From Chloroflexota bacterium (GTDB lineage: Bacteria > Chloroflexota > Anaerolineae > DUEN01): a DNA stretch of 64,000 nucleotides. Location: positions 18,672-82,671 of the forward strand of contig JAADGJ010000062.1 in NCBI GenBank assembly GCA_013152435.1. Reading direction: 5' to 3'. The position numbers and the translations under genes are program-made. Below, piece after piece: positions 10,821-41,382 of this stretch (position 1 is the first letter of the stretch; each line of letters begins with the position of its first letter). The notes below the pieces were generated by a model that was given only the letters and a program-made list of their open reading frames with translations, ran no database searches and was not told the DNA's origin.

Positions 10821-10861
10821 TGTGCCTCTCCCTTCGCCTGTTCTCTGGGATCGGGACGGGA

Positions 10862-12300: not shown

Positions 12301-12304
12301 GGGC

Positions 12305-14617
12305 TCATATCCTCTCTTGCAGGCTGTGCACGTCGAAATCTTCTACCGGGATGCCCGCCTGCGCCAGCAGGGAGATGGGCTTTCCCTTCTCACGGAGCGC
12401 GACGGGCACTCGCACCCCCGCCCCGTTTCGGCTGGCGGCGAACCCCTGTCCCTTCAGGAGCGCGATGGCGGCCTCGACCTGTTCGGCCGGCACGTGGAGT
12501 CGCAATTCGGTGTGTCTCCCCAGGTGCGCGTCCAGCTCGTCCGGCGAGCAGTCGGCCACGATCCGCCCGTTCTCCATGAGGAGCACGCGGTCGGCCAGGT
12601 TGACCACCTCGTCCAGGCGATGGGAGGAGAAGATGAGCGTCTTCCCCTTCTTCTTGACCTCGGCCAGCAGGGCCAGGATGTCCTCCCTCGCCCGGGCGTC
12701 CAGGTTCGTCGTCGGCTCGTCGAGCACCAGCAGCGGCGGATCGGCCAGCAGCGCCGCGGCCAGCGCGAGCCGTTGCTTCATCCCGCCGGATAGGGTCTGC
12801 ACCGCCTGGTGAACCACCGATGTGAGCCCCATCTCCTGCAGGGAGCGCTCGATGGATTCGGGCGAGGCCCCCTTGAGGTACGCGTAGAAGCGCATGGTCT
12901 CCCACACCGTCATATCGTCATAGAAGCTCAGCTCCTGGGGCACGAAGCCCATCTGTCGGCGCGCGGCCTTGCCCTCTCTCCGGACGTCGTGGCCTGCCAC
13001 GTGTACCGTTCCCTGGAAGGGAAGGAGCCCCAGCAGGCATCGGAGCGCGGTGGTCTTCCCCGCACCGTTCGCTCCCCATAACGCCACAGCTTGTCCGGCC
13101 TCAACATCGAACGAGAGTCGGTCCACGGCGACCAGTGAGCCGAAGCGCTTGGTCAGATCGCGAACGTGGATCATGAGTTCTCCCTCATTATTGGACAATC
13201 TCTTGCCTCCTCCCTGCCGCCTGATGGGAACCTGGGTGAGGAAAATCAGCATGGCGGCCAGGGCCAGCAGGCCAATGGACGGCACCCCCAGTTGCCGGGC
13301 GGCCTGTTGGGGGATGGCGGGGAGGCCCTCGGGTATGCGCGGCGCCATCAGCGGACGATCGTCCACCAGCTTCGGCTGCGGCTTGATCAGCGGGAACGCT
13401 CGGGCGGCGAAGTCCAGCGCCTGGGTCGCCGGGCTGTAATCGAACAGCCGCAACATCGGGTAGCGGTCCATAAGGTTCTCGAACAGCCGCGTGGCCCGGT
13501 AGGGAAGATCGCCGATCCCATCCTGGTCCGCGTCGTAGCCCGTGTAGTCGCTCCAATAGTTCCCCAGGCCGTTGACGGTCCAGATGTTCCCTTGCAGTTG
13601 TCCACCGCCCGACACGCCGACCTGTTCCCGATTCTCGATGAACCCGTTTTCAGTGAGGCGGTTGCGTCGTACCGATGGCTGGAACAGGATGCCGACATCG
13701 TTGAAAGCGAAGATGTTCCCGCGGAACAACACGGTGCTGTCGATCTCGCGCGGCGAGTTGTCCACGAACGCTCCCACGCGGTTGTCCAGGAAGAGGTTCT
13801 CCTCGATCACCGCGTCGTCCATGTCCTTGAGGCCGATGCCGAAGCCGCTGGGGCCGCGATTGTAGGCGAAGGTGTTCCGTCGTAAATGCAGGCGGCGGCT
13901 GTACATCAGGAAGGCGCCCACGGAGTTATTGGACAGCCGGTTCCCCTCGATGAGGGCATCATCGCAGTACATGAAGTGCAGGCCGTAGCGTCCTCCCTGG
14001 ATCACGTTCCCGCGCACGGTGAGGCGCTCCGAATACCAGAGCACCACGTCCCGGCCCTGCTCCACCACGTTGTCCTCCACCCGCACGTCATTGCTGTACC
14101 AGACCCGGATGGGATCCCCCCGGCGGGGCAGGGGCAGGTCCTTGCTATAGATCGTGTTCCCCCGGATCACGCTGCCGACCGCCTTGCGCAGGTAGATGCC
14201 GAACAGGGTTCCCTCTAGCCGGTTGCCCTCGACCACGACCTCCGGGGCTTCGACGGCGATGCCGGAGTTCTCCTGGTCCAGCGCGTCGCCGCTGTTTTGA
14301 ACCACGAACCCCTTCAGCATGGCGCCCCGGGCGGTCAGGCGGACCACGGTGCCCTGGCCGCCGCCGTCGATCACGGGCCAGCCATAGCCGATGATCTTGA
14401 CGCTTCGGTCTACCACCAGGGGACCGCTGTAAATACCCTCGCGCACCTCGATGGTGTCCCCATCCCGGGCCTCCGCCAGCGCCTCCGCGATGGTGCGGTA
14501 TGGCCCTTGCGGGGAGACGACCAGGGTCGCGGGGCCCTCCTGGGCCAGGAGCGGTGTGGCGCCGCTGGCCCACAGGAGGAGAGCTATCCCCAGGAACATC
14601 CAATTGCGACGTCGCAT
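12305..14617 (-). CDS. nosDF: NosD-NosF fusion: periplasmic right-handed beta-helix copper-processing protein fused via a TM helix to an ABC ATPase
   Basis: Single 770-aa ORF. Residues 1-~440 have a signal peptide plus NosD-like parallel beta-helix repeats (GNRLEG..., RGNTIYS..., VEDNVV..., RGNVIQGGRYGLHFMY..., EGNRLSNN...). There is a hydrophobic segment VPSIGLLALAAMLIFLTQV. Residues ~480-770 form an ABC ATPase with Walker A GANGAGKTT, signature LSGGMKQRL and Walker B LLVLDEPT. Confidence 0.8.
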   Translation of the reverse strand: MRRRNWMFLGIALLLWASGATPLLAQEGPATLVVSPQGPYRTIAEALAEARDGDTIEVREGIYSGPLVVDRSVKIIGYGWPVIDGGGQGTVVRLTARGAMLKGFVVQNSGDALDQENSGIAVEAPEVVVEGNRLEGTLFGIYLRKAVGSVIRGNTIYSKDLPLPRRGDPIRVWYSNDVRVEDNVVEQGRDVVLWYSERLTVRGNVIQGGRYGLHFMYCDDALIEGNRLSNNSVGAFLMYSRRLHLRRNTFAYNRGPSGFGIGLKDMDDAVIEENLFLDNRVGAFVDNSPREIDSTVLFRGNIFAFNDVGILFQPSVRRNRLTENGFIENREQVGVSGGGQLQGNIWTVNGLGNYWSDYTGYDADQDGIGDLPYRATRLFENLMDRYPMLRLFDYSPATQALDFAARAFPLIKPQPKLVDDRPLMAPRIPEGLPAIPQQAARQLGVPSIGLLALAAMLIFLTQVPIRRQGGGKRLSNNEGELMIHVRDLTKRFGSLVAVDRLSFDVEAGQAVALWGANGAGKTTALRCLLGLLPFQGTVHVAGHDVRREGKAARRQMGFVPQELSFYDDMTVWETMRFYAYLKGASPESIERSLQEMGLTSVVHQAVQTLSGGMKQRLALAAALLADPPLLVLDEPTTNLDARAREDILALLAEVKKKGKTLIFSSHRLDEVVNLADRVLLMENGRIVADCSPDELDAHLGRHTELRLHVPAEQVEAAIALLKGQGFAASRNGAGVRVPVALREKGKPISLLAQAGIPVEDFDVHSLQERI

Positions 14618-14621
14618 AGAT

Positions 14622-15290
14622 CTATCCTTCAGTCGGTGACCGCTCGGTGGCTTCCACCAGCGGCTTATAGGCTCGTCGATGGAAGTAGAGGCCCAGCAGG
14701 ATCAGGAACGAGGCCAATGCCGCCAGGTAGAACCCTCGATCTACGGAGGCAATGGTCTGGAACTGTCCGATTTTCCCCTCACCGAGCACGGGGGGAACGA
14801 ATGGCTCGATGGCGTTGCTCAGCGGCGCGCTGGGGTCCAGGTTCTGACCGAAATGGCGCAGCCAGAAGTACAGATCGCCCAGGAAGATGGCCGGGAACAG
14901 CAGGGCCGGCAGGGAGAGCAGCGCTGCCCACTGGTTGTGCACGTAGATCGCTGCGATGACCAGCAACGAGATCACCGCGATGGCGAAGATGCTCAGGGAG
15001 CGCTCCAGTTGTGCCGCCTCCTCCAGGGGGCGCATGCCGATATAGTGGTTCAGCCCGTCGATCTCTTTCACATCTCCGGTCATACGGTTCACGTAGACCT
15101 GGACCTCCAGCCCGTCCGGGTATTGGGGAGCCAGGAGCTTCAGTCGCCAGTAGGGCACGAAGATGGATACCAGCAGGCAGAAGGCTGCCAGTCCTAGGAA
15201 GACCGTGGGCAGGAGATAGCGTAACTGTTGTTCCGCCGTCTGCTCCGCAGGCAGGCGTGGCCCGATCAGCTTGTCCCATAACCCTGTCAT
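14622..15290 (-). CDS. nosB: NosB-like membrane protein (clade II nos clusters)
   Basis: 222-aa protein with ~4 TM helices. Its position immediately downstream of nosZ and upstream of nosD matches the nosB gene of clade II clusters. No informative motifs were found. Confidence 0.45.
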   Translation of the reverse strand: MTGLWDKLIGPRLPAEQTAEQQLRYLLPTVFLGLAAFCLLVSIFVPYWRLKLLAPQYPDGLEVQVYVNRMTGDVKEIDGLNHYIGMRPLEEAAQLERSLSIFAIAVISLLVIAAIYVHNQWAALLSLPALLFPAIFLGDLYFWLRHFGQNLDPSAPLSNAIEPFVPPVLGEGKIGQFQTIASVDRGFYLAALASFLILLGLYFHRRAYKPLVEATERSPTEG

Positions 15291-15371
15291 CGGTAGTTTC
15301 CTTCCGATATGGGCCGAGGGTGGTGGGCGGGGAGGTCCTCCCCGCCCACCACCGATGGTCCGTTCTGTATT

Positions 15372-17420
15372 TTACGGTTGCACCAGGAAGTAGCCCGTCA
15401 TCTCCAGGTGCAGGGCAGAGCAGAACTCGGTGCAGTAGAAGGTGTAGACGCCGTCCTGGTCTGCCACGAACTCAAAGGTGGCCGTCTCTCCCGGCTCCAG
15501 GCTCAGGTTGATGTTGTACCCGGGCAGCGCGAAGCCGTGAGTGGCATCCTTGGCCCGCTCGATGTTGGTGATGTGCCAGATCACGCGGTCGCCCTTCTTC
15601 ACCTCGATGCGCTCGGGGTTGTAGTGGCTGCGCACGGCCGTCATCCAGATCTCCACGGTGTTGCCGTTGCGCACCACCCGCTCCTGTCCGGCCTCCACCG
15701 CGTTGGGATCCTTGCTCTGGGTGTTCGGGTTCCATCCGATCTCCGGATATACCTCCCAGGGCTGGAGCTTGTCGGCTTTGATGATCTGCGCGTAGTGCGG
15801 CTCGCCGATACCGATGGGCATATCATACAGGAGCTGGAGCTGGTCCCCCGGCTGAGAGATGTCGATGAGCTGGAAGTTCTGCGGCAGCAGCGGCCCCACC
15901 GTCAGGAACCGGTCCACCGACCACTTGTTCAGGGAGACCAGGTACTTGCCGTCCGGGCTGACCGTGTCCCCCTCGGCGGCGGCGATGTGCCCCACGTTGT
16001 AGTGGACGGGGATCTTGGTGACCAGGGACCACTCGGGATCGCTGTGCAACTCCTGGTAGGGGCCACCCAGCGTCCAGCGGGCCACCGCGCTGTCCAGGAA
16101 GAGGCTGGTGTAGGCGTACCCCTGGTTGTCGAACTGGGTGTGGAGAGGCCCCAGACCCAGCTCCACCTGGGCCTCCATCACATCGTCCAGGTTCAGGATG
16201 GTCACGCCGTACTGGTCCTTCTCGCCCGCGCCGCTCTCGATGGCCTTCTGGATCTTGTCGAAGCTGTACACGGTCACGTGGGGATCGAGCTTACCCGAGA
16301 CCACGATGTAGTCCCCGCCGGGTGCCACATCGACGCCGTGAGGGCTCTTGGGCTCCGGGGCGAAGTACAGCAGCCCTTCCGCGATCGACGTCTCCAGCGG
16401 GATCACGTTGAACCCGTTGACCTGGGTCACCTGGCCCGCCGCCGCCACCTCGGCGGCCTTCTTGAGGTTGATGATGTGGAGGTAATCCATGTCCTGCTGA
16501 GACGCGCCCGCCTCGAACGGAGGATTCCCCTCCTCGACGCCGCCGGTGCTCATCTCCGTGTTGAAGGAGTTGCAGAACACCCACCCTTCGCTCACCTTCT
16601 TGCCGGCGTCACAGATGTCCTGCCAGTAGGGGGGCAGCTCCATGGCGAAGGATTCCTCCGGCAGGATGCGGCCCTTCTCCCGATCGAACTTCCAGAAGGT
16701 GATCATGCCGCGGTAGGCCTCCGCGTAGTCGTTCAGGGAGGCGTACGTCCAGCCCAGCGGCGTGGCATACTGGCCGCCCTCGATCACCCACTCGGTGTTG
16801 GGGGTGGCCATGGTCCCGCCGTGATCGTTGATGGCGATGGGGTTCTTGACGATCTGCTTGGTCTCAAAATCTCGCAGATCGATGACCGCCACCCGGGCGT
16901 TGGCCTTGTCGTTGATGAACAGGAATTGGCCATCATAGTCTCCGCCCGTCTCGCTCAGGGCCGGATGATGGGTATCTCCCCAGGTGATCTTCTTCCCATT
17001 CACCGCCCCCTCGGCCAGCACTCGGTCCGTCTCCTCCGCGCCGTACCCCCAGCCCTGCCATGGCTCGGGCGTGAACACGCCGATCACCTTGAGCAGGCGC
17101 ATGGACGGCAGCCCGATGACCAGCACCTGGCCGGAGTGACCGCCGGAGGAGAACATCACGTAGTCGTCCTGCTTCCCCGTGGGGAGGTACGTCTTCAGGG
17201 CGGCGACGACGTCATCCGGCGTGAGTCCGCGTTCCTGGGCGATCGCCATGGCATCGCCGGATAGCTCCGTGGCTGGTTCGGCCACTGCCGTGGTAGCCTC
17301 CGGTGTGGCAGCCGGCTCCCCTGGCCCCCGCACGATGATCGCGACGACGATCAGGACGATGATGACGATGAGGGCCGCGACGAGAAGGGGGAGATACCGT
17401 TGCAAACTCTGGCTTTGCAT
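15372..17420 (-). CDS. nosZ: Nitrous-oxide reductase NosZ, Sec-type (clade II)
   Basis: The ORF spans 15372-17540, but the likely start is Met41 (ATG ~17420, behind AAGGAGG), followed by a hydrophobic anchor LPLLVAALIVIIVLIVVAIIV with no twin-arginine motif. It has the seven-bladed propeller CuZ region and a C-terminal CuA motif (YTFYCTEFCSALHLEMTGYF). Confidence 0.9.
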   Translation of the reverse strand: MQSQSLQRYLPLLVAALIVIIVLIVVAIIVRGPGEPAATPEATTAVAEPATELSGDAMAIAQERGLTPDDVVAALKTYLPTGKQDDYVMFSSGGHSGQVLVIGLPSMRLLKVIGVFTPEPWQGWGYGAEETDRVLAEGAVNGKKITWGDTHHPALSETGGDYDGQFLFINDKANARVAVIDLRDFETKQIVKNPIAINDHGGTMATPNTEWVIEGGQYATPLGWTYASLNDYAEAYRGMITFWKFDREKGRILPEESFAMELPPYWQDICDAGKKVSEGWVFCNSFNTEMSTGGVEEGNPPFEAGASQQDMDYLHIINLKKAAEVAAAGQVTQVNGFNVIPLETSIAEGLLYFAPEPKSPHGVDVAPGGDYIVVSGKLDPHVTVYSFDKIQKAIESGAGEKDQYGVTILNLDDVMEAQVELGLGPLHTQFDNQGYAYTSLFLDSAVARWTLGGPYQELHSDPEWSLVTKIPVHYNVGHIAAAEGDTVSPDGKYLVSLNKWSVDRFLTVGPLLPQNFQLIDISQPGDQLQLLYDMPIGIGEPHYAQIIKADKLQPWEVYPEIGWNPNTQSKDPNAVEAGQERVVRNGNTVEIWMTAVRSHYNPERIEVKKGDRVIWHITNIERAKDATHGFALPGYNINLSLEPGETATFEFVADQDGVYTFYCTEFCSALHLEMTGYFLVQP

Positions 17421-17562
17421 GGGCAAGAACCTCCTTTCTTTGGCTCTGTGGCCGGGAACTTGAAGGTAGCACCGGGGGAAAGTGCCCATGGTGCCGCGTG
17501 AAGAGGCCACGTTCAGTGGCCACTCCTCCCGACCCAGCATACGACAAACCGAGGGAGGTTTC

Positions 17563-17597: not shown

Positions 17598-18356
17598 TTA
17601 TCGTGCGGTGGGGGCTTCTGCGGGGATGTCCGGAGGCAGATCTTCAGCGATAGTCACCAGGCCATGAGGCCTCAGTACGACCACGCGGGCTCGTCCGCTG
17701 GCGATGAGTCCCTGCTCCTCCCATCGGCTCAGGACGCGACTGACCGTGTACAGGGTCGTGCCCGTCATCTCCGCCAGGTCCTGGCGGGTCAGAGCCAGAT
17801 CGATCAGGATCCCGCCTTCCACCTTGCGCCCGAGCTGGCGCACCAGGCGGAGCAGAGCGCGGGCGATGCGTCGCTCCACCCGCTCCGTCACCAGCTCTCG
17901 AAGGCGGTCTTGCAGATCTCGAACGTGTTGTGCCATCAGATCGATCGCGTTCAGGGCCAGTCGGGGGTAGATCTCCATCAGCCGGGCCATGCGCTCCCCG
18001 TCCCAGGCCAGCGCCTCACAATCCTCCATCGCCTCGGCCGATACGGGGTACGACATGGCGCTCAGCACCGCGATGCACCCGAACATGCGCCCCGGCTCGA
18101 TGAATCCCAGGACGGTCTGGTGTCCCTCTGGAGTGACCTGGGTCAGCTTCACCTGCCCCCGGACGAGCACGTAGAGGAATGAGGCGGCGTCGTCCTGGAG
18201 GAAGAAGAAGCTCCCCCGGGCCACCCGTTTGAAGTAGGCGGTCTGGATCACGTGCATCAGGGTGCTCGGATCCAGGCCCCGGAACAGGTAGATCCGTTGC
18301 AGGTGCTCGACCTGTTGGCTGAGAGGTTCAGAAGCGCTCATGCTTGGATTGTACAC
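17598..18356 (-). CDS. Crp/Fnr-family transcriptional regulator (Dnr/NnrR-like, no Fe-S cysteine cluster)
   Basis: 252 aa. Has an N-terminal cNMP-binding beta-barrel (RGSFFFLQDDAASFLYVLVRGQVKL) and a C-terminal HTH (TRQDLAEMTGTTLYTVSRVLSRWEEQGLI). It lies directly upstream of nosZ on the same strand. Confidence 0.8.
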   Translation of the reverse strand: MYNPSMSASEPLSQQVEHLQRIYLFRGLDPSTLMHVIQTAYFKRVARGSFFFLQDDAASFLYVLVRGQVKLTQVTPEGHQTVLGFIEPGRMFGCIAVLSAMSYPVSAEAMEDCEALAWDGERMARLMEIYPRLALNAIDLMAQHVRDLQDRLRELVTERVERRIARALLRLVRQLGRKVEGGILIDLALTRQDLAEMTGTTLYTVSRVLSRWEEQGLIASGRARVVVLRPHGLVTIAEDLPPDIPAEAPTAR

Positions 18357-19952: not shown

Positions 19953-20906
19953 TTAGCGCGCCCGCACGCGGGTGCCGGGCACGGGCACGGAGCCGAGCGT
20001 CTCCTCCACCACGGCGCGTGGGTCGACGTTCTTGATGCGGGCTGATGGGCTGATGATGAGCCGGTGTGCCAGGGTGGGCTCGGCCAACGCCTTGATGTCA
20101 TCCGGGATGACATAATCGCGGCCCAGCACGGCTGCCCTCGCCCGGCTCGTCTTATATAGCGCCAGGGAGGCTCTCGGCGATGCCCCCAGGTAGACATCCG
20201 GGTGCTGCCGCGTTGCGGTGACCAGCGAGATGATGTATTCCTTGATCAGATCGTCTACGTAGATCTTCTTCACCGCCTCCTGCGCGGCCAATAGCTCGTT
20301 CACCTCGATGACCTGTCCGATCGTCTCGATGGGGTGGACCTCCCGTTGCATATCCAGCATGGCCATCTCGTCCTTGGGCGTCGGATACCCCAGGCTGATG
20401 CGCATCATGAAGCGGTCCACCTGAGCTTCCGGCAGAGGGAACGTGCCCTCGTATTCGATCGGGTTCTGGGTGGCCAGAACCAGGAAGGGGCGCGCCATCG
20501 GATAGGTCACTCCATCGACCGTGATCTGGCGCTCTTCCATGGCCTCCAGCAGGGCGGATTGGGTCTTCGGGGTGGCCCGGTTGATCTCGTCCGTCAACAC
20601 GATCTGGGCCATGATCGGCCCCGGTCGAAACTCGAACTCCCCCGTCTTCTGGTTGAACACGGACACGCCCGTGACGTCGCTGGGGAGCATGTCCGGCGTG
20701 AACTGGATGCGTCGGAAGCTGCACCCGATGGATCGAGCGATGGCCCGGGCCAGCATGGTCTTGCCGACGCCCGGCACATCCTCGATCAGGATATGCCCTT
20801 CACACAGCAGGGCGAAAAGGATCAGTTGGATCTCGTCCGTTTTGCCGATGATGACCTTCTCGACGTTGTCCACGACTCTCGTTACGACACTCTGCACTTG
20901 GTTCAT
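19953..20906 (-). CDS. MoxR-family AAA+ ATPase
   Basis: Likely start at the ATG at 20906 (MNQVQSVV..., behind AAGGAGAG). Walker A is GVPGVGKT, Walker B is VLTDEINRA, and the sensor/arginine-finger region is typical of MoxR ([23 protein letters not shown]). Confidence 0.85.
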
Positions 20907-21184
20907 ATGTCGACTTTCTCTCCTTAAGACACGCACGCTGTGGGCCCAGGACATCTCCCGGCCCTCTCAGTTCGAGAAAGATTATACCAGCAATTCATGA
21001 AAGGAGTAAGCGGGCTCGCATACATTCTTCCTCTTGCCGGGGTCGGCCCACCGACTCGAGGCGGGTATGCGAGCCCGGGCGAGGAAGGTCCCTTCGCCCT
21101 TCCCCTGAGGGCTTGCGATGAGCGTCGTGGGTCGTCTCGCGGGACTTTCACTATTTTGGATACACTACCCTGGGCGTTGTCATG

Positions 21185-21213
21185 TTGTCGGGAGGTCACG
21201 GAGGTGCTATACT
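21185..21213 (+). promoter_or_regulatory. Putative promoter of the mvk operon
   Basis: TTGTCG, a 17-nt spacer, then TATACT. It sits ~35 nt upstream of the mvk ATG (21250) with RBS GGGGCGAGAGG. Confidence 0.35.
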
Positions 21214-21249
21214 GCGCTGTGTGGTAACCTTCCATAGGGGCGAGAGGTC

Positions 21250-22206
21250 ATGGGATCTGCCATCCTGGGGAGCGGCCACGCTCCCGGCAAGGTGATCCTG
21301 TTCGGCGAACATGCGGTGGTGTATGGCCGCCCGGCCATCGCCGTGCCGGTGACCCGCGTTCGGGCGGAGGCAACCGTCGCCTCGGGGGAGCCCGGGTCGG
21401 GGCTCTCCATCCATGCCCCGGACCTGGGACGCACCATCTCGCTGGCGGCCGCCCCGGCGGATGAGCCTCTGGCCGCCATCGTGCGGGTGACGCTGGACGC
21501 GTTGGGGGTGACGCCTCCCCCGGATTGGGTCGTGACGGTGCGTTCCACGATCCCGATCGCGGCCGGCATGGGGAGCGGGACCGCCGTATCCGCCGCGATC
21601 GCCCGGGCCCTGGCCGACGCGGCAGGGCGTGATCTGGCACTGCCCGTCCTCTCCGATCTCGTGTACCAGATCGAGAGGCTGCACCATGGCTCCCCATCCG
21701 GGGTGGACAACACCGTGGTCTGCTATGGGCGCCCGGTGTACTTCGTGCGCGGGCGATCCCCTCAGTTGCTTCGGATCGCCCAACCCTTCTGGCTGGTCAT
21801 CGGGGATACGGGCGTGCCCAGCTCCACCCGGGAAGCGGTTGCGCATGTGCGCCGGGCCTGGGAGGCGGATCGCGCTCGCCTGGAGTCCCTGTTTGATGGG
21901 GTGGCGGCGCTGGTGGAACGGGCCCGCGAGGCGATCGAGGCTGGCCGCGTGGAGGTTCTGGGGACGCTGATGGACGAGAATCACGCGCTGCTGTGTGAGA
22001 TGGGAGTGAGCTCTCCCGAGCTGGACCGGCTGGTCTCGGCAGCCCGGGAGCACGGCGCGGCCGGTGCCAAGCTGGCGGGGGCGGGACGTGGCGGCAACAT
22101 GATCGCGCTGGTCCCACCCGAACGGGCGATCTCGGTGGCCGATGCCCTGCGCGCCGCCGGCGCCGTGCGCACCATCACGACCGAGGTGGGCTCGGAGGCG
22201 ACATGA
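21250..22206 (+). CDS. mvk: Mevalonate kinase (GHMP kinase family)
   Basis: Has the N-terminal PGKVILFGEHAVVYG motif, the GHMP ATP-binding loop PIAAGMGSGTAVSAAI, and the C-terminal GAKLAGAGRGGNMIAL. Confidence 0.85.
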   Translation: MGSAILGSGHAPGKVILFGEHAVVYGRPAIAVPVTRVRAEATVASGEPGSGLSIHAPDLGRTISLAAAPADEPLAAIVRVTLDALGVTPPPDWVVTVRSTIPIAAGMGSGTAVSAAIARALADAAGRDLALPVLSDLVYQIERLHHGSPSGVDNTVVCYGRPVYFVRGRSPQLLRIAQPFWLVIGDTGVPSSTREAVAHVRRAWEADRARLESLFDGVAALVERAREAIEAGRVEVLGTLMDENHALLCEMGVSSPELDRLVSAAREHGAAGAKLAGAGRGGNMIALVPPERAISVADALRAAGAVRTITTEVGSEAT

Positions 22207-23579
22207 GCGAACCTTTCCCGACCCTGCGCTCGTTCCTGGCCGACGCGGAGGCCGCGGGCCATCTGATCACCATTCGACGCTCGGTGAGCCCTCACCTGGA
22301 GATGGCCCGGGTGATCCTCGCCCTGGACGGCCGCCCGGTGCTCTTCACCGATGTGCCCGGCTATGCGTATCGCGTGGCCGCCGGGATCTGCTCTGATCGA
22401 CGGTATTTCGCCATGGCGTTGGGCTGTAGGCCGGAGGAGGTCTCCTTCCGCCTGGCCGACGCCCTCTCCTCCCCGCGAAGGCCGCCTGTGTTACAGGACG
22501 CGCCCTGTCAGGAGGTGGTCGAGGAGGACGTCGATCTGGAGCGTATCCCGTTCCTCACCCATTGGGAGGGAGATGCCGGCCCCTACGCGACGGCCGCCGT
22601 GGCGATCGTGAACGACCCGGATACCGGCCCGAACGCGTCCTATCACCGGCTGCTGAGGCTGGATCGGCGTCGTCTCGTGGCGCGGATCATCGAGCAGCGC
22701 GGGACCGATACGGCGCTGCGCAAAGCCGAGGGGGATCTGCCGGTGGCGATCTGCATCGGGCTCCCGCCTCATATCCTGCTGGCCGCGGCCATGTCCCCGC
22801 CGCCTGAGGTGGACGAGATGCACATCGCCCAGGCGCTGGCGCCCACCCCGCTGGTGGCCTGTCGCACGGTTCCCCTGCACGTGCCCGCCGCCGCGGAGAT
22901 CGTCCTGGAGGGCCGGATCACCCGACAGACGGCTGCCGAGGGGCCTTTCATGGATCTGACCGGCACCTGGGATATCGTCCGTCAGCAGCCGGTGATCGAG
23001 ATCGATTGTATCACGCATCGCCGGGACCCCATTTACCAGGCGCTGCTCCCAGGGCGGCTGGAGCATCGGTTGCTGATGGGGATGCCGCGGGAGCCGACCA
23101 TCTTCGCCGCCGTCAACCAGGTGTGCCAGTGTCTCAACGTGTACGTCACGCCCGGCGGGGCCTCCTGGCTGCACGCTGTGGTGCAGATCCGAAAGCGCCA
23201 CCCCGAGGATGGACGGCGCGCGGCCGAGGCCGCCTTTCGGGGGCATGGCTCGCTCAAGCACGTGTGGGTCGTGGATGAGGATGTGGACCTCTTCGATCCC
23301 AACGACGTGGAGTGGGCCATGGCGACCCGGTTCCAGGCGGATCGGGATCTGCTGATCTGGCGGGATCAGCCGTCCAGCTCGCTGGATCCGTCGGCCACCC
23401 ACGTGCCCGGGGAGAAATCTCGCTCGGCCAAGATGGGGCTGGATTGCACGATCCCGTGGGACTCACCCCAGGGGCCCAGCGACCCGGCCGCGTTCCAACG
23501 CGTCCCGATCCCGCACGTCGATCTCACCCCTTACCTGGAGGAGCAGGGAGGGGCGAAGCCATCTCGCGAGCGAGGATAG
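22203..23579 (+). CDS. UbiD-family (prenyl-FMN-dependent) decarboxylase; candidate anhydromevalonate-phosphate decarboxylase
   Basis: 458 aa with UbiD-like architecture throughout. Its start overlaps the mvk stop (ATGA), implying co-translation with mevalonate kinase. Confidence 0.8.
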   Translation: MSEPFPTLRSFLADAEAAGHLITIRRSVSPHLEMARVILALDGRPVLFTDVPGYAYRVAAGICSDRRYFAMALGCRPEEVSFRLADALSSPRRPPVLQDAPCQEVVEEDVDLERIPFLTHWEGDAGPYATAAVAIVNDPDTGPNASYHRLLRLDRRRLVARIIEQRGTDTALRKAEGDLPVAICIGLPPHILLAAAMSPPPEVDEMHIAQALAPTPLVACRTVPLHVPAAAEIVLEGRITRQTAAEGPFMDLTGTWDIVRQQPVIEIDCITHRRDPIYQALLPGRLEHRLLMGMPREPTIFAAVNQVCQCLNVYVTPGGASWLHAVVQIRKRHPEDGRRAAEAAFRGHGSLKHVWVVDEDVDLFDPNDVEWAMATRFQADRDLLIWRDQPSSSLDPSATHVPGEKSRSAKMGLDCTIPWDSPQGPSDPAAFQRVPIPHVDLTPYLEEQGGAKPSRERG

Positions 23580-23580
23580 C

Positions 23581-24209
23581 ATGAGCACACGACACGCATC
23601 TCGATCATCGTCTCCGGGGAATTCCTCGCCGGACATCCTGCGGACCTTCATCGCCATCGAGCTGGACGAGACCGTGGCGATCGCTTTGGGTGCGATTCAG
23701 GAGGAGCTGAAGTCTCGGGTTCCGAAGGGAAGCGTTCGGTGGGTGAATCCGGCCAGCATCCATCTGACGTTGAAGTTCTTGGGCGATACGCCGAGATCGC
23801 GACTCTCGGAGATCGAGGAGGCCCTGCGGGAGGCGTGCGCGCGCCTCTGGATCTGACGATCGAGGGGCGCGGTTGTTTTCCCAACTTTCGGCGCCCCAAT
23901 GTGATCTGGGTGGCGGTGCGGGATCATGGAGGGGCGTTGACCCGGCTGCAGGAGGCCGTCGAGGCGCACGTCGCGCCGCTGGGCTGGCCGACGGAGAAAC
24001 GGCCCTTCCGCCCGCACCTCACCCTGGGGCGGGTGAATCGCCGGGTCTCCTCACGGGAGCGGGCGGCCATCGGCGCGGCCGTGGAGTCTCTGGAGGTGGA
24101 ACAGATCGCGACCGTTCACGTGACCCATGTCAGCTTCATGCGCAGCGATCTGCGCCCGACCGGCGCCGTATATACCCGGTTGTTCGCGGCCGCTCTGGGC
24201 GGGGGATGA
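23581..24209 (+). pseudogene. thpR: RNA 2',3'-cyclic phosphodiesterase (ThpR/LigT, 2H family), frameshifted
   Basis: The first HxTx motif (HLTLKFLG) is in the frame of ORF 23581-23856. The second (HLTLGRV) and the C-terminus are in the +2 frame (ORF 23739-24209). The shift is at the GC run around 23835-23850 (gcgtgcgcgcgcctctgg). Confidence 0.55.
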
Positions 24210-24243
24210 CAGCTACGGAATGAGGCGGCGCTCCGGATCGCCC

Positions 24244-25773
24244 TCACGCGATGGAGGAATCTTGCTCGTAGAAACGGGGATCGGCTGCCTCGGCCTGTTG
24301 AGCCTCTGAGGGCTCGAACAGCGGCTCGTCCGCCGGTAAGGGTTCCGGGACTGATGCGGTCGTGCCCTCCCAGATGCGGGCCAGCATCGCGATGAGGCCG
24401 TACCAGACCGAGGCCGCCAGGAAGGCGATGAGGGCGACCGCGGCCAGGCCCACGATCTGGGCCTCCATCTGGCCGGGCCAGTCCGGTTGCATCCGGGCCG
24501 CGGCGAGCAGGCCGGTGACCCCCTGCCCGACGACGCCCTGGTACTGCTCAATGCCGATCCTGTTCCAGCCAACGCCTGCCGTTCCATCGGCGAACAGGCC
24601 CACCGCCAGCAGGCTTAGGACGGCCCCGATCCCGTGGGTGCTGATGACGGCGGTGGGATCGTCCAGGCGCAGGACGTGATCGATGATGTACGTTGCCAGC
24701 GGTACCAGCAGGCCAGCGATCGTCCCGATGAGCAGGGCGGCCCAGGGCGGCATGAAGGGGCCCGCTGCCAGCGCGGCGATCGCCCCGGCGGCCACGCCTC
24801 GGGCGGACATCAGTGGGTCATGTCGGCCGGCCACGAACCAGGTGTAGGCCATGGGGGCCAGGACGCCGCCGGTGGCGGCCAGCAGGCCGTTGAGGGCGCC
24901 GCGAATGGGCTGGACGGATGACGGATCCAGCAGGGGATTCCCGTAGCTCCATCCCAACCCTCCCACGATGAGCAGGATCGCCCCCAGGGCGGATAGCAGC
25001 GGGAGATGCACGGGGGGGAGCTCGATGGGCTCTTGATCCGAGTGTGGCGGGCGACGCGTGCAGAAGATCAGGATGCCGGCCACGGCCACGGTAGCGCCGA
25101 GCAAGTGCACGCCGGCGGCGCCGCCGAAGTCGACCAGGCCGTGCCCCAGGCCCAGATTGTTGCCCAGATTGGCCAGCCACCCGCCGCCCCAGATCCAATT
25201 ACCGACCAGCGGGTAAAGCAATGCGCCGATCAGCAGCCCGCCGATCGCCGAGGCGAAGGTGGGAGATCGGCCTCGCAGGCTGAGCAGCGGGATGAGCACC
25301 GCCGTCGTGACCCAGGGGAGTTGTGCGAAGAACAGCGCGTATGCGGCCGGGGTCGCCGCCTCGTGCAGCAGTCCCCATCCGCTCAGGCCCACCATGCCCC
25401 AGCCGGGGCCCCAATCCGGCCCCAATGCGGACCACTCCCACACCAGGCCCTCCAGCCCCGGCAGATCGTGGACCAATCCAACGCCGCCGAACTGGATCCC
25501 GAAGCCGATGGCCCAGTATCCTAAAGTGGCCAGGCCCACGGCGGACAGCCCGGTGAGCGCGGCCTGGCGGGATAAGGAGGGTTCCATCCCACCGGCCGCG
25601 ATCAGGACGAAGCCGATGGGGACGAGCCAGGAGAGGCTTCCGGCGATCAACGTCCAGGGGAAGCTCCCGTTCGTGGTGGATTGGGAGGCATCGCCGGCGG
25701 CGGCGACGCCGTAAGAGAGCAGGATCAGCGCGAGGACGCCGGCTGTCGCTCGTGCGAGTTGGCGCTTGCTCAT
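24244..25773 (-). CDS. amt: Ammonium transporter (Amt family)
   Basis: Likely start at the ATG at 25773 (MSKRQLARATAGVLALILL signal). Has 11-12 TM helices with the Amt signature region GLVDFGGAAGVHLLGA. No glnK gene is adjacent. Confidence 0.85.
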   Translation of the reverse strand: MSKRQLARATAGVLALILLSYGVAAAGDASQSTTNGSFPWTLIAGSLSWLVPIGFVLIAAGGMEPSLSRQAALTGLSAVGLATLGYWAIGFGIQFGGVGLVHDLPGLEGLVWEWSALGPDWGPGWGMVGLSGWGLLHEAATPAAYALFFAQLPWVTTAVLIPLLSLRGRSPTFASAIGGLLIGALLYPLVGNWIWGGGWLANLGNNLGLGHGLVDFGGAAGVHLLGATVAVAGILIFCTRRPPHSDQEPIELPPVHLPLLSALGAILLIVGGLGWSYGNPLLDPSSVQPIRGALNGLLAATGGVLAPMAYTWFVAGRHDPLMSARGVAAGAIAALAAGPFMPPWAALLIGTIAGLLVPLATYIIDHVLRLDDPTAVISTHGIGAVLSLLAVGLFADGTAGVGWNRIGIEQYQGVVGQGVTGLLAAARMQPDWPGQMEAQIVGLAAVALIAFLAASVWYGLIAMLARIWEGTTASVPEPLPADEPLFEPSEAQQAEAADPRFYEQDSSIA

Positions 25774-25802: not shown

Positions 25803-26321
25803 GTGAGTGAATTGTATCAGAATCCCGGGGAACACACAAAAGACGAGGCGCCGCGCCTGTTGGTCGATGCCATGCTGGGCAGGCTGGCGCGCTGGCTCCG
25901 CCTGCTGGGCTGCGATGCCGTGCTGGCTCCCAACGACGCGACCGATATGGAGCTGGTGCGGCGCGCTCGCGCCGAGGGACGCACCATCCTGACGCGGGAT
26001 ACCGCCCTCGCGCGGCGACGCGGCGTGGCCGTGTTGCTGGTCGCCAGCATGGAGTTGACGGCCCAGCTCCGGCAGGTGGTCGGGCAGCTGGGGATCGGTC
26101 GGGAGCGCATCGGCACGCGCTGCCTGGTCTGCAATCACGAGCTCGTTTCCCTGAGCCGGGAGGACGCCCGCGGTCGGGTCCCCCTCTACGTGTGGGAGAC
26201 GCAGCATCAGTTCCACTATTGTCCGCAATGCGATCGGGTCTACTGGGCGGGCACGCACTGGGAACAGATGCGCGCCCGGCTGGATGCCATACTGGACCCG
26301 GACGACCGGACGAGCCGGTGA
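25803..26321 (+). CDS. Mut7-C RNase domain (DUF82) protein with a C-terminal zinc ribbon
   Basis: RLLVDAMLGRLARWLRLLGCDA is the conserved Mut7-C N-terminal block. The C-terminal motifs CLVCNHEL...YCPQCDRVYW form a zinc ribbon. The ORF starts with GTG, so the start is uncertain. Confidence 0.7.
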   Translation: MSELYQNPGEHTKDEAPRLLVDAMLGRLARWLRLLGCDAVLAPNDATDMELVRRARAEGRTILTRDTALARRRGVAVLLVASMELTAQLRQVVGQLGIGRERIGTRCLVCNHELVSLSREDARGRVPLYVWETQHQFHYCPQCDRVYWAGTHWEQMRARLDAILDPDDRTSR

Positions 26322-28192
26322 TCGATCGTCACCGCGCTCCACGGCAGGACCAGCGGATCTCCCAACGGGACCAGATCCGGCCCGGCGTAAAGCCCGATGC
26401 GAAGGCTGTACGGGCCGGGCGGGAGGGTATCCGGCAGGGGGATTGAGTGGCGGTCGCGCAGCACCTCGCCGGGCTGCCACAGCGACGTGGGGTAGTACAT
26501 CCCGCCGGGGGGGGCGTCGTGCTGTCCGATCTTCTCCCCATTTCCCGCCAGCAAGTGCACAAAGGACGTGTAGTCCCGTTCCAGGGACCTCTTCGGCTCC
26601 CAGTAGAGCGTCAGCTCTAGCGGCTGCCCCGGCTGCGGATCGGGCGTGTCGGTTGCCACGGCCAGCAGGATAAGGGCGTCCCCCACGACGCCCAATGGCT
26701 CACCGGGCGGCCTGGTCACGCTCCCCTCGACCTGCACGACGGCTCCCACGGGCCGTAAATCGAAGCGCACGTCCAGCCCCGGCATCGGCTTGACCAGGAA
26801 GACCGGACGCCCCGTGTCCAGGGCGGACGCCGTCACCTGGCCCACGTTGAGCCATCCCGGTCGCATCACCATCAGGGGGAAGAGCCCGGTGAGATCCGGC
26901 CGTCGATGTTCCACCTGCTGGAGGTAGATCAGCGGCACCATCTCATCGCGATCGTTGCTGACCAGGATCGCCTGCTGGGGCAGCGGCTCGCTCAGGATGT
27001 TCTCCCAGAACGTTCGGGCCTCTCGATCGGCGCTCCGGTCCACGCGCGGGAAAAAGGTCACCATGAGGAAGATCGGCAACAGGAGTCCCGCGGCCGCGAT
27101 CGCGAGCGCCAGCGCCCGTCTCCATCGAATCGCCAGCGTCGCCAGCGCGGAGAGCCCCACGCCGGCCCATAGGGCTGCGATGAGATAGACCGGCACGTAC
27201 AGGACGTACACGTCGCCGATGCCGTAGAACAGGTTGAAGCCCACCTGCGCCAGGAGCATGAGGCCGGTGGGCGCCAGGAGGTCCCAGCTTCTCCGCTCGA
27301 TCATCCAGGCCAGCCCGATGATGGCCAGGGCCAGACCTATCTCGCTCAGGTTTTGGGATATGAGGGAGAGGGCGGCGGGGATCTGTCCCCAGGCCGCCGC
27401 GGGCGTCAGCAGCTCCCCGGCGAAGACGCGTCCCGTCACGAACGCCAGGAAGCCGTCCAACGAGCGATCGTACAGGGGGAGCGTCTCGCCGGGGCCGAGC
27501 GGGACCCACAGGTACGGCGTGGCCGGCGCCCGCAACGGGATGTACAGGTAGAGCAGTTGGGGCAGGATCAGACCGGCCAGCATCCTCCCCACCGTGCCAC
27601 GATCCACGGCGGGACGCTTCAGCCAGGCCCACGCCAGCAATCCAGGCAGCCAGAGGATCGTCGTGCGGTGGTGGGCCAGGCCGAGCCCGACGACCCAGGC
27701 CAGGAGCACCGGGGCTCGTTGGCCTTCATCCTCCCGCACGATCAGCCACAGCGCGCAGGCCAGCAAGAGCGCGTGCAGCGTGTACACCTCGGCGATGACG
27801 GCCTGGGACCAGAAGGTGGGATTGGCCGCGAATGCCAGCGTCGCGCTCGCGGCGGCCAATCGTCGCGCCGAAAGGGGTAGCCGGGGCGACACGCGGCTGA
27901 TCATCCCCAGGGCGACGAGGTAGCCGATGCCCACGGCCGTCCCGCCCCAGGCGGCCGATAGGAGGTTCATGCGCCAGGGGGGCGTGCCCAGGACAAGCAG
28001 GTGGCTCCACAGCCAGCCCAGCAGGAGGTATAGAGGGTATCCCGTGGGGTGTGCCAGCCCCGCGATCCACGCCGCGACCTGGAACTCGGCCGGATCGCCG
28101 AAGAGGAGCCCCGGGGCCAGCGTGCGCAGGTAGAGGATGCCGGCGGACAGGCCGCATCCCGCCGCCAGCCAGCGATCCACCCTCCGGCTCAT
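26240..28192 (-). CDS. GT-C-fold polytopic membrane glycosyltransferase-like protein (DUF2723/PMT-like) with a C-terminal beta-rich module
   Basis: Real start is the ATG at 28192 (MSRRVDRW...), which overlaps the upstream gene's stop as ATGA. It has ~12 TM helices with PMT/ArnT-like N-terminal loops, then a soluble C-terminal domain containing LELTLYWEP...DYTSFVHLL...YYPTSLWQPGEVLRDRHSIPLPDTLPPGPYSLRIGLYAG. Confidence 0.65.
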   Translation of the reverse strand: MSRRVDRWLAAGCGLSAGILYLRTLAPGLLFGDPAEFQVAAWIAGLAHPTGYPLYLLLGWLWSHLLVLGTPPWRMNLLSAAWGGTAVGIGYLVALGMISRVSPRLPLSARRLAAASATLAFAANPTFWSQAVIAEVYTLHALLLACALWLIVREDEGQRAPVLLAWVVGLGLAHHRTTILWLPGLLAWAWLKRPAVDRGTVGRMLAGLILPQLLYLYIPLRAPATPYLWVPLGPGETLPLYDRSLDGFLAFVTGRVFAGELLTPAAAWGQIPAALSLISQNLSEIGLALAIIGLAWMIERRSWDLLAPTGLMLLAQVGFNLFYGIGDVYVLYVPVYLIAALWAGVGLSALATLAIRWRRALALAIAAAGLLLPIFLMVTFFPRVDRSADREARTFWENILSEPLPQQAILVSNDRDEMVPLIYLQQVEHRRPDLTGLFPLMVMRPGWLNVGQVTASALDTGRPVFLVKPMPGLDVRFDLRPVGAVVQVEGSVTRPPGEPLGVVGDALILLAVATDTPDPQPGQPLELTLYWEPKRSLERDYTSFVHLLAGNGEKIGQHDAPPGGMYYPTSLWQPGEVLRDRHSIPLPDTLPPGPYSLRIGLYAGPDLVPLGDPLVLPWSAVTIDHRLVRSSGSSMASSRARICSQCVPAQ

Positions 28193-30975
28193 GGCGTCGG
28201 CTCCAACCTCACCCAGTCCACGGCGGCCGCCAGCGCCCGGCGGTCCGGGTTGCGCCCGATGCGGAGATAGGCCCCGCCGGATCGGACGACCTCCGCGGCG
28301 CTCCCGGGCGGCGCCCCCTTCACACCGATCAGCGCGTGGGAGGCGCCCGGCACCATCCTGGGATCCTGCCCCGCGCCGATGGTCTGCAGCGCGGCCCATG
28401 CCTGGTCCGTCAGGTGATCGATGGCCGGACCTCGCGTGGCCACGACTACCAGCATGCCGTCTGGCACGTCCTGCAGGAACTGCGCCAGCCGCTCGGCCTC
28501 GTAGATGTTGGCGGCGGTGTCGAACCCTCGCTTCTCCAACAGGCGACCGTCGCGGGGATCCACCACGGCCACGTTGTACCCGCGTCGTCCGGCCGAGGCG
28601 TCCACCCGCTCGCCCGCGTCGTCCTCCAGCGTGATGTAGGCGAAATCGGCCGATGCGTTGATCTCGATGTCCACCGGCGTTTCCACGCCCGTCTGCCCGA
28701 TGCGCGCGTCGGCCGGGAGCACATCGCGAGGGCGGGCCGCCCAGGCGAACTCCAGGGCGATCCGGTTGAGTCCACTCCGCACGATCCCCGCTGGGACCTG
28801 GACCTCGTAGGTCTCCCAGTCGGCGGCCAGTGTGATCCGATCCCCCACCGGCCGGCCGTTGAGCAGCACCCGCATGTGTTGAGGAGGGGCATCGGGGTAG
28901 GCGAAGGGATGGACGCGCAGGGAGAGCCGGTAGGGGGGCGCCGGCGATGTCAGGCGTATCGGCAGGAACAGGCGCGCCCGTCGTGCCCCCGCCCAGTTGG
29001 CCGTGACCCCGAAGATCTGCTCGTCGTCGTGCCAGCCCTCGCCGCGATAGGGGGCCGATCCCTCGACCCCGAGGTCCAGCTCGAAGTCCGGGCGCCCTTC
29101 CGGCTGATAAACCCGGTAGGCCTGCACGCCATCGCGATCGTAGAACGGCTGGCGGTCGACCGGCAGCAGCTCCAGCGTGTAGTCTCGGACGGCCGCGTAG
29201 GTGTCCGCGTAGGGGAACCGGCCGGGGATGGGCGGCAGGACGATGAGGTAGCGCACGTCGTAAAGATACATGAGATCGGCCGCCTGGGCGCGCGCGGCCG
29301 CGTCCACCTCCGGCGGGACTGGCCGCCCGAACTCCGTTTCCGTGATGGCCTGGAACAGCGGCAGGCGGCGGAAATACGCCATCTTGAACTCAGGGGCACG
29401 GCTGATGTTTCCGCCCAGCATGGGCTTCCCGTGCACCGTCTGGTAGAACTGCACCTGCGTTCGCTCCGATCCGAGGACGCCGAAGGAGTTGCGCCACCCC
29501 AGCGGCAGTTGTAGGAGGGCGAAGTCCCCCGGCTCGTTGGCGATCTGCTCGTAGATCGGAGGCACGCGGGCGTCGGTCAGCGGGAGGGGCACGGCCGCGT
29601 GCTCGAACAAGATCGCCGCGGCCAACAGCCCGGCCAGCGCGCCGGCGATCCCCTCGCGTCGATGGCCGGGTGAGAGCCTGCGGATGGCCCACGCGATGGC
29701 ATAGGCGGCCAGCACCGCGATCCCCAGCATCAGGATCACGCTGTTGCGGTTGGGAGCCCGGTTGGCCTTGACGAAAGGGATATAGTGTAAGAGCGCGAAG
29801 GGCATGGGGAACGTGACGCCGCGGTCCCCCAGCAAGCGGTCCAGGCTAAACTCGTATCGGCCGTTGATCTGAAGCAGCGGTCCCAGGCAGAACGCCCCGA
29901 AGAGGACCGCCACCCAGCGCCAGGGACGGCCCCGCTTCCAGGCGGCCACAGCCCCGATGACGGCCAGCGCCAGGGTCACCCATCCGACGAACACGGTGTT
30001 GATGTCGGAGAAGCGCGCTGTGCCCTCCTCCACCGCCCGCAGCGCGCGGGGCCACTCCTCGCCCCAGAGGGGATGGAGGGCGGTGGGCGTGATGAACCCC
30101 AGCAGATCTGTGCTGAGCTTCAGGCCCTCTCCCCATCCCTCCAGCGCGTAGTCGCCGCTCACGAATTCACGCACGATGGGCACCAGCGCCGGGCTCCAGA
30201 TGAGGGCGGCCACCACGGCCACGATGGCCATGCGGGCTGCCAGCGAGGCGATCTCGCGTCCCGCGTCCTTAGGCTGTTTGTGGGCGCGCACGGATTGCGC
30301 CAGACGGAACCCCAGAAGCACCACGGTCAGGATCGCCAGGAAGACGGCGAAGATCATCTCGGCCAGCGCGGCCAACGCCAGGAAGAACCCGGCCAGGGAT
30401 GCATCCCGCCATCCCGGGCGACGCAGCGTGCGTATGAGGTACAGGGCGTAGAAGGGGATCCACTGGGTGGTCACCATGTCGTAATGCCCCAGCGCGGCGT
30501 AGATGGCCCGGTTGGATCCGAAGGCGTAGATCAGGCCGGCGATCAGCGGGACCAGGTGGCCGAGGGTCCCGGACGGCAGGCGGTGCTCATCGGCCAGCAA
30601 CTGGCGCACGAGCAGGTAGGTTCCATAGCCGCTGAGGGTCGTCGCCAGGATCAGCGTGGCGTTGGAGGCGGGCACCACTCCCCACGCCAGCAGCATCGGC
30701 AGGGCCATCAGCGCGTTGAAGAAGTTGTACGTGTACAGGATCAGGTCAATGCCCAGCGGATACCAGATGAGGTCGGTGTGCAGGGGGGAGGTGTGCAGGT
30801 CCAGGAGGGCGTGTTTGAAATACCAGATGTTCCAGAGGAACGTGGACTCGTCAAAGGCCCAGGTCGCGCTGCCGGGCGTGTGGGTGGCGAAGCGCAGGAG
30901 CAACGGGTAGCTCAAGAGAAGAGCCAGGATCAGGAAGGCGGCCGGGATCAGCCACTGCCATCGCTTGCGTATCAT
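28189..30975 (-). CDS. Large (928 aa) polytopic membrane protein with a GT-C/YfhO-like N-terminal domain and a large extracytoplasmic C-terminal domain
   Basis: The N-terminal ~470 aa are multi-TM. The C-terminal ~450 aa are soluble. The extreme C-terminus ([49 protein letters not shown]) tentatively resembles an ILEI/FAM3-like domain. It is translationally coupled to the flanking GT-C genes. Confidence 0.6.
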
Positions 30976-31002
30976 ATCCTCCCACTCGCGTGCGCCATGG
31001 GG

Positions 31003-37998: not shown

Positions 37999-40704
<2,706 letters not shown>

Positions 40705-41318: not shown

Positions 41319-41382
41319 TGGCGGGTGGTGGAAGTTGGGTGATCGAGCGGTTGTGAGTCGAGCCTTTGCGGGTTCGGCGTAT

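Follow-up and report, generated by a model that had tools for sequence, protein, structure and literature searches.

In the archaeal-type mevalonate pathway, mevalonate kinase (MVK) is followed by an aconitase X (AcnX)-type dehydratase, a UbiD-family decarboxylase that depends on prenylated flavin mononucleotide (prFMN), and isopentenyl phosphate kinase (IPK) (PMC9254496, PMC8791446, PMC12547664). The route saves one ATP per isopentenyl diphosphate (IPP) and has been engineered for the production of isoprenoids, where it is limited by the oxygen-sensitive dehydratase (PMC12547664). A paper from 2023 still called the archaeal mevalonate pathway "unique to archaea"; according to a 2026 review, some Chloroflexota encode the archaeal-type pathway (PMC13001223), and both that review and PMC12547664 cite Kanno et al. 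2024 for its presence in the Chloroflexota bacterium Candidatus Promineifilum breve. In this study, we describe a 64,000-nucleotide stretch of contig JAADGJ010000062.1 (hereafter, the window) from a Chloroflexota bacterium of the class Anaerolineae (assembly GCA_013152435.1), in which an MVK gene overlaps the gene of a UbiD-family decarboxylase. The two genes probably encode the MVK and the prFMN-dependent anhydromevalonate phosphate decarboxylase (AMPD) of an archaeal-type mevalonate pathway, the phosphomevalonate dehydratase (PMDh), IPK, and UbiX of which would be encoded elsewhere in the genome.

The pathway was reportedly defined in Aeropyrum pernix by Hayakawa et al. in 2018 and is said to have been reconstructed from the Methanosarcina mazei genes MM_1524-1526 and MM_1762/1763. 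Kanno et al. 2024 (Appl Environ Microbiol 90:e0110624) reportedly assigned to Ca. Promineifilum breve a UbiD homologue of the AMPD clade and an archaeal-type lower mevalonate pathway. As in the archaeal mevalonate operons, MVK precedes AMPD in the window, and the decarboxylase is of the same UbiD subfamily (44 to 56% identity), with the same catalytic and clade-specific residues. The archaeal operons usually continue with both PMDh subunits, large (PMDh-L) and small (PMDh-S), IPK, IDI2, and a prenyl synthase, whereas the pair in the window is followed by a bacterial 2H phosphoesterase gene and lies on a contig of bacterial gene content (lgt, xseA, ybeY, a miaB-like gene, a nosZ-nosDF-nosY cluster, and MoxR-DUF58). 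Ca. Promineifilum breve has in common with the window a Chloroflexota host, and the window UbiD is 59% identical to the orthologue of the same clade in a metagenome-assembled genome (MAG) of Promineifilum sp. (locus L019). In the Promineifilum-type loci, however, AMPD is followed by a fused large and small PMDh of 604 amino acids and MVK is absent, while the window has the order MVK-AMPD-ThpR-like with no dehydratase nearby; the window lineage is a sister subclade to the Promineifilum-type subclade, and its enzymes are known from sequence alone. The modified mevalonate pathway of the Haloarchaea type or "Chloroflexi" type (Roseiflexus and Anaerolinea; Dellas et al. 2013) is found in this phylum too and likewise has MVK as the first enzyme and presumably IPK as the last. 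It relies on one ATP-dependent decarboxylase of the GHMP family, whereas MVK in the window is coupled to UbiD and no second GHMP gene accompanies it.

Organization of the MVK-UbiD gene pair

The MVK gene (21250..22206, forward strand) and the UbiD-family gene (22203..23579, forward strand) both start with ATG and encode 318 and 458 amino acids, respectively. At the junction (22194..22206, forward strand; GGAGGCGACATGAGC), the ATG of the UbiD gene (22203-22205) overlaps the TGA of the MVK gene (22204-22206), as read directly from the letters. A Shine-Dalgarno-like GGAGG (22194-22198) is placed 4 bases 5' of the UbiD start, so that the order is GGAGG-CGAC-ATGA. An earlier reading of the same DNA, made from the letters without database searches (the sequence-only reading), had claimed an ATGA overlap of the MVK stop with the start of a 458-residue UbiD gene, and both coordinates and sequence agree with it exactly. 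It had also claimed that no phosphomevalonate kinase (PMK) or diphosphomevalonate decarboxylase (MDD) gene follows, which is correct: the next gene is of the ThpR/LigT type, and after it comes a convergent ammonium transporter gene. Both open reading frames (ORFs) have the coding signature of the window, i.e., a GC3 of 0.84 versus a GC of 0.55 and 0.49 at codon position 2; the GC content of the whole window is 64.7%.

A sigma-70-like promoter candidate (21185..21213, forward strand; TTGTCG, 17 nt, TG-TATACT), recognized by its match to the consensus, lies in the intergenic region between the divergent MVK and MoxR genes, 37 nt upstream of the first MVK codon. It is the sole promoter-like site in the interval 20800-24400, for which 0.3 sites are expected from shuffled sequences, and the scan of the same interval found no terminator-like site inside the region. 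We propose that the two genes are co-transcribed and that their translation may be coupled through the overlapping junction.

Mevalonate kinase

The product of 21250-22206 is, by family assignment, a mevalonate kinase with the corresponding predicted activity. Its score against the NCBIfam equivalog TIGR00549 is 249.4 bits (cut-off 163.05; E = 4e-74), and it carries both Pfam GHMP kinase domains, PF00288 (GHMP_kinases_N) and PF08544 (GHMP_kinases_C). All 11 matches in the PDB at E ≤ 1e-10 are mevalonate kinases, of which 2x7i, 4hac, and 6mde are the closest, and the models for PMK, GalK, and ThrB score the protein far under their cut-offs. It is 70% identical to the MVK of loci L001 and L002 and to the MVK half of the protein P0132, in which MVK and UbiD form one ORF of 794 amino acids with a linker of approximately 35 residues. 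P0132 comes from a single 4.5-kb contig and belongs to the 90% cluster of P0002; its single ORF may be either a true fusion or a sequencing error. Among the approximately 50 window genes scanned with Pfam, MVK is the only member of the GHMP family, i.e., a second gene of this kind (PMK, PMD, or DMD) was not found.

The UbiD homologue and its clade

The protein encoded by 22203..23579 matches the UbiD family model TIGR00148 at 363 bits (cut-off 244.85; E = 2e-108), contains all three Pfam UbiD domains (PF20695, PF01977, and PF20696), and is identical to NCBI entry NOZ28169.1 from a MAG labelled "Chloroflexi bacterium". A species scan covered one genome per GTDB species, and the results given here concern its best 80 loci, the clade itself being larger. 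Approximately 42 of these loci are from Chloroflexota (Anaerolineae, Thermoflexales, Caldilineales, and Promineifilum sp.) at 56 to 67% identity, to which one locus of the same species at 97% is added, and 37 archaeal loci at 44 to 56% rank directly behind them. These archaeal sequences, from Bathyarchaeia, Thermoplasmatota, Methanomassiliicoccales, Methanomicrobia, and DPANN, are the nearest named relatives outside the Chloroflexota. Most of the 90%-identity clusters with a named source are from Chloroflexota as well, among the 120 matches listed, and the same gene pair is kept at 60 to 83% identity across many species. Two of the homologues (P0053 and P0066, 69% identical to the window UbiD) are already named AMPD by JGI, and P0160 from Marsarchaeota (48% identical) bears this name in UniRef.

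A neighbour-joining tree was constructed from 94 sequences, comprising 42 from Chloroflexota, 38 from archaea, the HmfF of Pelotomaculum (PtHmfF, reconstructed from the PDB alignment), and other representatives of the UbiD family. All Chloroflexota UbiDs and the archaeal UbiDs with operon context form a clade that is set apart from PtHmfF and 11 other representatives in 99/100 bootstraps, which supports the assignment of the window UbiD to the AMPD clade. Within the clade, the window UbiD pairs with that of L001 (100/100) in a subclade of 12 members (76/100), the sister of the Promineifilum-type subclade (100/100), and MVK-linked and AcnX-linked UbiD genes interleave. The sequence-only reading had pointed to the Aeropyrum AMPD clade for comparison; the tree bears it out as far as grouping with the UbiDs of archaeal MVK-UbiD-AcnX-IPK operons is concerned, the Aeropyrum enzyme itself not being among the 94 sequences. 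The genes would have been acquired from archaea, and because the monophyly of the Chloroflexota sequences is weak (36/100), a single transfer is not claimed. One further AMPD-clade protein, P0162, from a MAG labelled Elusimicrobiota (46% identical), branches beside the Chloroflexota sequences.

The residues of the window UbiD agree with its position in the tree. A signature set was defined as the 98 alignment columns in which 42 UbiDs encoded beside AcnX reach a conservation of 95% or more; of these, the window UbiD keeps 93, the five changes being conservative, compared with 63 in HmfF and 51 to 72 in the other representatives. The general UbiD residues N144, R149, E205, E246, D251, K352, and K410 are all present, invariant in the clade, and common to HmfF and the outgroup; E246 and D251 are part of the sequence EGPFMD, which is EGPFGE in HmfF. 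An E(D)-R-E ionic network has been named for UbiD enzymes (PMC8988006), and the role of each conserved residue in the window protein is putatively assigned from the alignment. Eight other residues, R161, R166, D257, R260, W322, H348, S350, and K405, are specific to the clade: all are found in the window UbiD and are invariant or nearly so in the 80 clade members (K405 in 77 of the 80), and they vary outside it. Several of them are basic and might bind the phosphate of the substrate, as far as the alignment allows one to infer. The column of R166 is arginine in 80/80 sequences of the AMPD clade and histidine in PtHmfF and half of the outgroup representatives. This column may be the canonical metal-ligand position; an interpretation of R166 as the loss of a metal ligand was dropped, as the residue roles were not confirmed in the literature searched.

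The closest solved structure to the window UbiD is HmfF of Pelotomaculum (6h6v/6h6x; 288 bits, residues 7-441), followed by AroY and UbiD. This match, together with the conservation of a histidine that has been tied to furan specificity in work on HmfF (H288), would be expected if the protein were a (hetero)aromatic acid decarboxylase (HmfF-like or acting on vanillate or protocatechuate) or an enzyme of the quinone-biosynthesis type that stands beside MVK by chance. Many close homologues are labelled "2,5-furandicarboxylate decarboxylase 1" by JGI because HmfF is the closest solved structure, and many proteins outscore HmfF against the window UbiD in a search of 1.84 billion representatives. 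HmfF shares with the window protein the three-domain UbiD architecture and the catalytic or cofactor residues N, R, E, E(D), and K; it differs in lying outside the AMPD clade, in the replacements R161L, R166H, D257G, R260A, W322R, H348S, and K405D, and in having no mevalonate context. An HmfF-type furandicarboxylate decarboxylase was rejected on these grounds, i.e., the position of the window protein outside the HmfF branch, the difference at 35 of the 98 signature residues, and the absence of hmf genes nearby. The sequence-only reading had stated that grouping with aromatic acid decarboxylases would speak against it; such grouping was not observed, and the equivalog models of these and related enzymes score far below their cut-offs: quinone-type UbiD (PRK10922, 159.5 versus 788), the MqnL-type menaquinone decarboxylase (TIGR03701, 188.4 versus 495.9), the vanillate decarboxylase VdcC (228 versus 650), and phenylphosphate carboxylase (TIGR02724, 96 versus 469; TIGR02723, 82 versus 565). 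UbiD adjoins MVK in 45 loci across two domains, and Pfam searches of approximately 50 window genes found no hmf, vdcBD, or quinone-pathway genes nearby. An aromatic substrate with chance adjacency to MVK is therefore close to refuted.

Gene context in archaea and Chloroflexota

All ORFs of the fetched loci were clustered, and recurrent neighbours were named with Pfam. The archaeal order is MVK, UbiD, AcnX (the large subunit of PMDh), the AcnX swivel domain (the small subunit), AA_kinase (IPK), FMN_dh (IDI2), and polyprenyl synthase. In the 37 archaeal loci, MVK typically precedes UbiD (31 loci), AcnX follows in 32 and the AcnX swivel in 30, and AA_kinase, FMN_dh, and polyprenyl synthase often come after these. 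Of the loci that hold both genes (14 from Chloroflexota and 31 from archaea), most have MVK and UbiD overlapping or separated by less than 90 nt, while a few archaeal loci have them kilobases apart. Given the adjacency of MVK and UbiD in 31/37 archaeal loci, the window pair would correspond to the archaeal operon MVK-AMPD-PMDh(L)-PMDh(S)-IPK-IDI2 at its 5' end, and this operon would have been broken up in Chloroflexota.

Two types of context are found in Chloroflexota. In the first, a LigT-like gene usually comes after MVK-UbiD, and no AcnX lies closer than 10 kb (the window, L001, L005, L007, L010-L013, L029, L035, L036, and L040; L032 has the order MVK-UbiX-UbiD). In the second, UbiD is followed by AcnX and MVK is absent (L015-L022, L024, L030, L034, and L045); in L016 the order is UbiD-AcnX-swivel-IPK, and L019 has the fused AcnX and swivel described above. 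UbiX adjoins UbiD in four relatives (L032, L038, L053, and L086). The conserved MVK-UbiD order, together with clade membership and the signature residues, supports for the decarboxylase the claim of the sequence-only reading that a UbiD coupled to MVK marks the archaeal-type route.

Three further observations were made on the related loci. A gene of approximately 100 amino acids (PF21758, LpdD_chaperone / PAC_bac) lies between UbiD and AcnX in loci of the Thermoplasmatota, Methanomassiliicoccales, and Methanomicrobia type (L044, L046, L048, L056-L058, L063, L068, L075, L077, L079, L081, and L086-L088), and a possible role of its product in these archaea is that of an accessory subunit of AMPD or of a factor for its maturation. 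Locus L071, from a MAG labelled Candidatus Sulfotelmatobacter sp., contains a full archaeal mevalonate operon together with genes for SRP19 and ribosomal protein S8e and probably represents archaeal DNA that was mis-binned with an acidobacterial MAG. Locus L085, from a MAG labelled Planctomycetia, is a 2-kb contig with only UbiX-UbiD, which is too little to judge the label.

Proposed pathway and the location of the remaining genes

In the proposed pathway, MVK would convert (R)-mevalonate to mevalonate 5-phosphate, and a PMDh of the aconitase X family, encoded elsewhere, would dehydrate it to trans-anhydromevalonate 5-phosphate. The UbiD homologue would then decarboxylate this compound to isopentenyl phosphate, which an IPK, also encoded elsewhere, would phosphorylate to IPP.

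The distribution of PMDh-L bears on whether its gene may lie apart from the pair. Profile searches and a metagenome scan found thousands of PMDh-L homologues, many of them from Anaerolineae or Chloroflexota MAGs. A large subclade of Chloroflexota AcnX large subunits stands alone (L092, L094-L121, and L174) in the context SurA / KaiC-like ATPase / TP_methylase / AcnX, with no UbiD, swivel subunit, or IPK in the flanks of these loci. Its members are 69 to 100% identical to one another, approximately 60% to the UbiD-linked PMDh-L of Chloroflexota, and approximately 50% to the archaeal ones. Because of this stand-alone subclade, dispersed pathway genes are taken as normal in Chloroflexota. The AspRS gene adjoining AcnX in L118, L121, and L174 is 62 to 69% identical to that located 2.6 to 4 kb upstream of MVK-UbiD in L011 and L012, a TPK-SBP-permease (thiamine-transporter) cluster is common to L174, L118, and L001, and a miaB-hit-yqeY-HD cluster is common to L098 and the window at only 45 to 66% identity. 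These synteny bridges are suggestive of related genomes carrying the stand-alone PMDh-L and the MVK-UbiD loci, and are no proof of it.

Several points weigh against the assignment of the pair to an archaeal-type pathway. Pfam searches of approximately 50 likely genes, together with tblastn searches with both PMDh subunits (large and small), IPK, IDI2, UbiX, and prenyl synthase from related loci, found no AcnX (PMDh), IPK, UbiX, IDI, HMG-CoA synthase, or HMG-CoA reductase in the 64-kb window, and 13 related loci with MVK-UbiD had none of these within 10 kb either. When Chloroflexota PMDh-L was used for profile searches (120 listed of approximately 8,000 matches each), no PMDh-L with a NOZ accession was among those listed or in the clusters of ten high-GC candidates, and no genome with the MVK-UbiD(-LigT) arrangement was tied to PMDh among the matches listed. 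The tree is a neighbour-joining and not a maximum-likelihood tree; it was built without the characterised AMPDs of A. pernix, M. mazei, and Ca. P. breve, so that the identity of the clade comes from operon context and the annotations of the sources. Many Chloroflexota use MVK, an ATP-dependent phosphomevalonate decarboxylase, and IPK (PMC9254496, PMC8791446), and a decarboxylase of this PMD type could be present elsewhere in the genome.

In that event, the UbiD homologue might be a genuine AMPD orthologue in an organism that makes IPP through MVK, the ATP-dependent phosphomevalonate decarboxylase, and IPK, or through the methylerythritol phosphate (MEP) pathway, so that the pair would be redundant, conditional (e.g., used under anoxia), or a decaying remnant. 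The missing genes in the window and in the related flanks and the documented PMD-type pathways of the phylum are all compatible with this; moreover, the third gene of the MVK-UbiD-LigT triad is broken in the window, and PMDh is oxygen-sensitive while the organism carries nosZ and cytochrome c genes. On the other hand, both ORFs of the pair are intact and have a strong codon bias, and no MVK other than that coupled to UbiD was seen. Purifying selection is argued from the retention of 93/98 signature residues and of the pair at 60 to 83% identity across species. We therefore regard a redundant or decaying pair as unlikely and retain the archaeal-type pathway as the probable role.

A "PMDh-L" query gave a weak tblastn match at 23176-23436, which is an artefact: the query came from an over-extended ORF of L016 that overlaps the UbiD C terminus. 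The ORF at 37999-41319 is neither an aconitase X nor a candidate for PMDh: it encodes a classical aconitase of 1,106 amino acids in which the Aconitase domain begins at residue 282, and the N-terminal part is either a long extension or the result of an over-called start.

The third gene of the triad

A gene for a ThpR/LigT-type 2H phosphoesterase (23581..24209, forward strand) begins 1 nt after the stop of the UbiD gene. It is frameshifted, being split between the frames 23581-23856 and 23739-24209, both halves of which match LigT_PEase and TIGR02258, and both H-x-T motifs are present across the two halves. Alignment to the sister assemblies L091 and L014 and to intact orthologues places a 7-bp deletion at approximately 23841. 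The orthologue is intact (211 amino acids) in the sister assembly GCA_054014295.1 (L091), the gene order of which is that of the window: nos genes, MoxR, MVK, UbiD, LigT, and ammonium transporter. The frameshift either marks a pseudogene specific to this strain or is an error of the assembly. In 12 Chloroflexota loci, the deep-branching L040 among them, LigT comes downstream of UbiD; the MVK-UbiD-LigT triad is found among L001, L005, L007, L010-L013, L040, L091, and the window (21250-24209), and was never seen among the 37 archaeal loci. A 2H phosphoesterase is not known to take part in the mevalonate pathway.

The conserved and unexplained phosphoesterase gene joined to the pair leaves room for a variant of the pathway, in which the AMPD-clade enzyme would act on another phosphorylated substrate of the acrylate type or would receive its substrate from a dehydratase other than AcnX. 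No AcnX lies within 10 kb of any MVK-UbiD(-LigT) locus, and many AcnX large-subunit genes of Chloroflexota have no small subunit nearby, as such a variant would lead one to expect. Nevertheless, the conservation shared with AcnX-linked enzymes is almost complete at the level of the active site, MVK-linked and AcnX-linked genes interleave in the tree, and dispersed pathway genes are common in bacteria, all of which makes a different substrate or source of substrate very improbable. A related and still quite unlikely reading is that the archaeal operon was rebuilt as a bacterial MVK-AMPD-ThpR-like triad, with dehydration by a stand-alone AcnX large subunit that lacks the swivel subunit or by another enzyme. 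If this were true, the 2H phosphoesterase would contribute to the pathway, which would be a distinct bacterial version of the ATP-saving route that possibly tolerates oxygen better.

Other features of the window

On its minus strand, the window encodes a nitrous oxide reductase cluster (10416-17540), which comprises nosZ (722 amino acids; nos_propeller and cupredoxin), an unannotated gene of 222 amino acids, a NosD-ABC ATPase fusion of 770 amino acids, an ABC-2 permease, and a cytochrome c; a regulator of the Crp family is encoded at 17598-18356. Four large membrane proteins of the PMT_2 / TMEM260-like glycosyltransferase type (719, 928, 801, and 822 amino acids) are encoded at 26240-33408 and 57393-59861, all beside other glycosyltransferase genes, and one of the four has an ILEI domain.

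Implications for Chloroflexota

The presence of the archaeal pathway in Chloroflexota is already published, and the reading of the window is explained by that work and partly captured by current annotation; what the window adds is a different lineage and a different gene arrangement. In the literature searched, we did not find the abundance of the clade in Chloroflexota, the MVK-AMPD-ThpR-like triad, or the stand-alone PMDh large-subunit subclade. The distribution described above suggests that the AMPD clade is common in Chloroflexota and not confined to one uncultured species, and the marker enzyme occurs here in a high-GC bacterium in which nitrous oxide reductase genes are present as well. 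What is known of the pathway is unchanged by this. The loci add data on the transfer and subsequent fragmentation of an archaeal operon in bacteria, and they widen the choice of bacterial genes for AMPD and PMDh on which engineering can draw.

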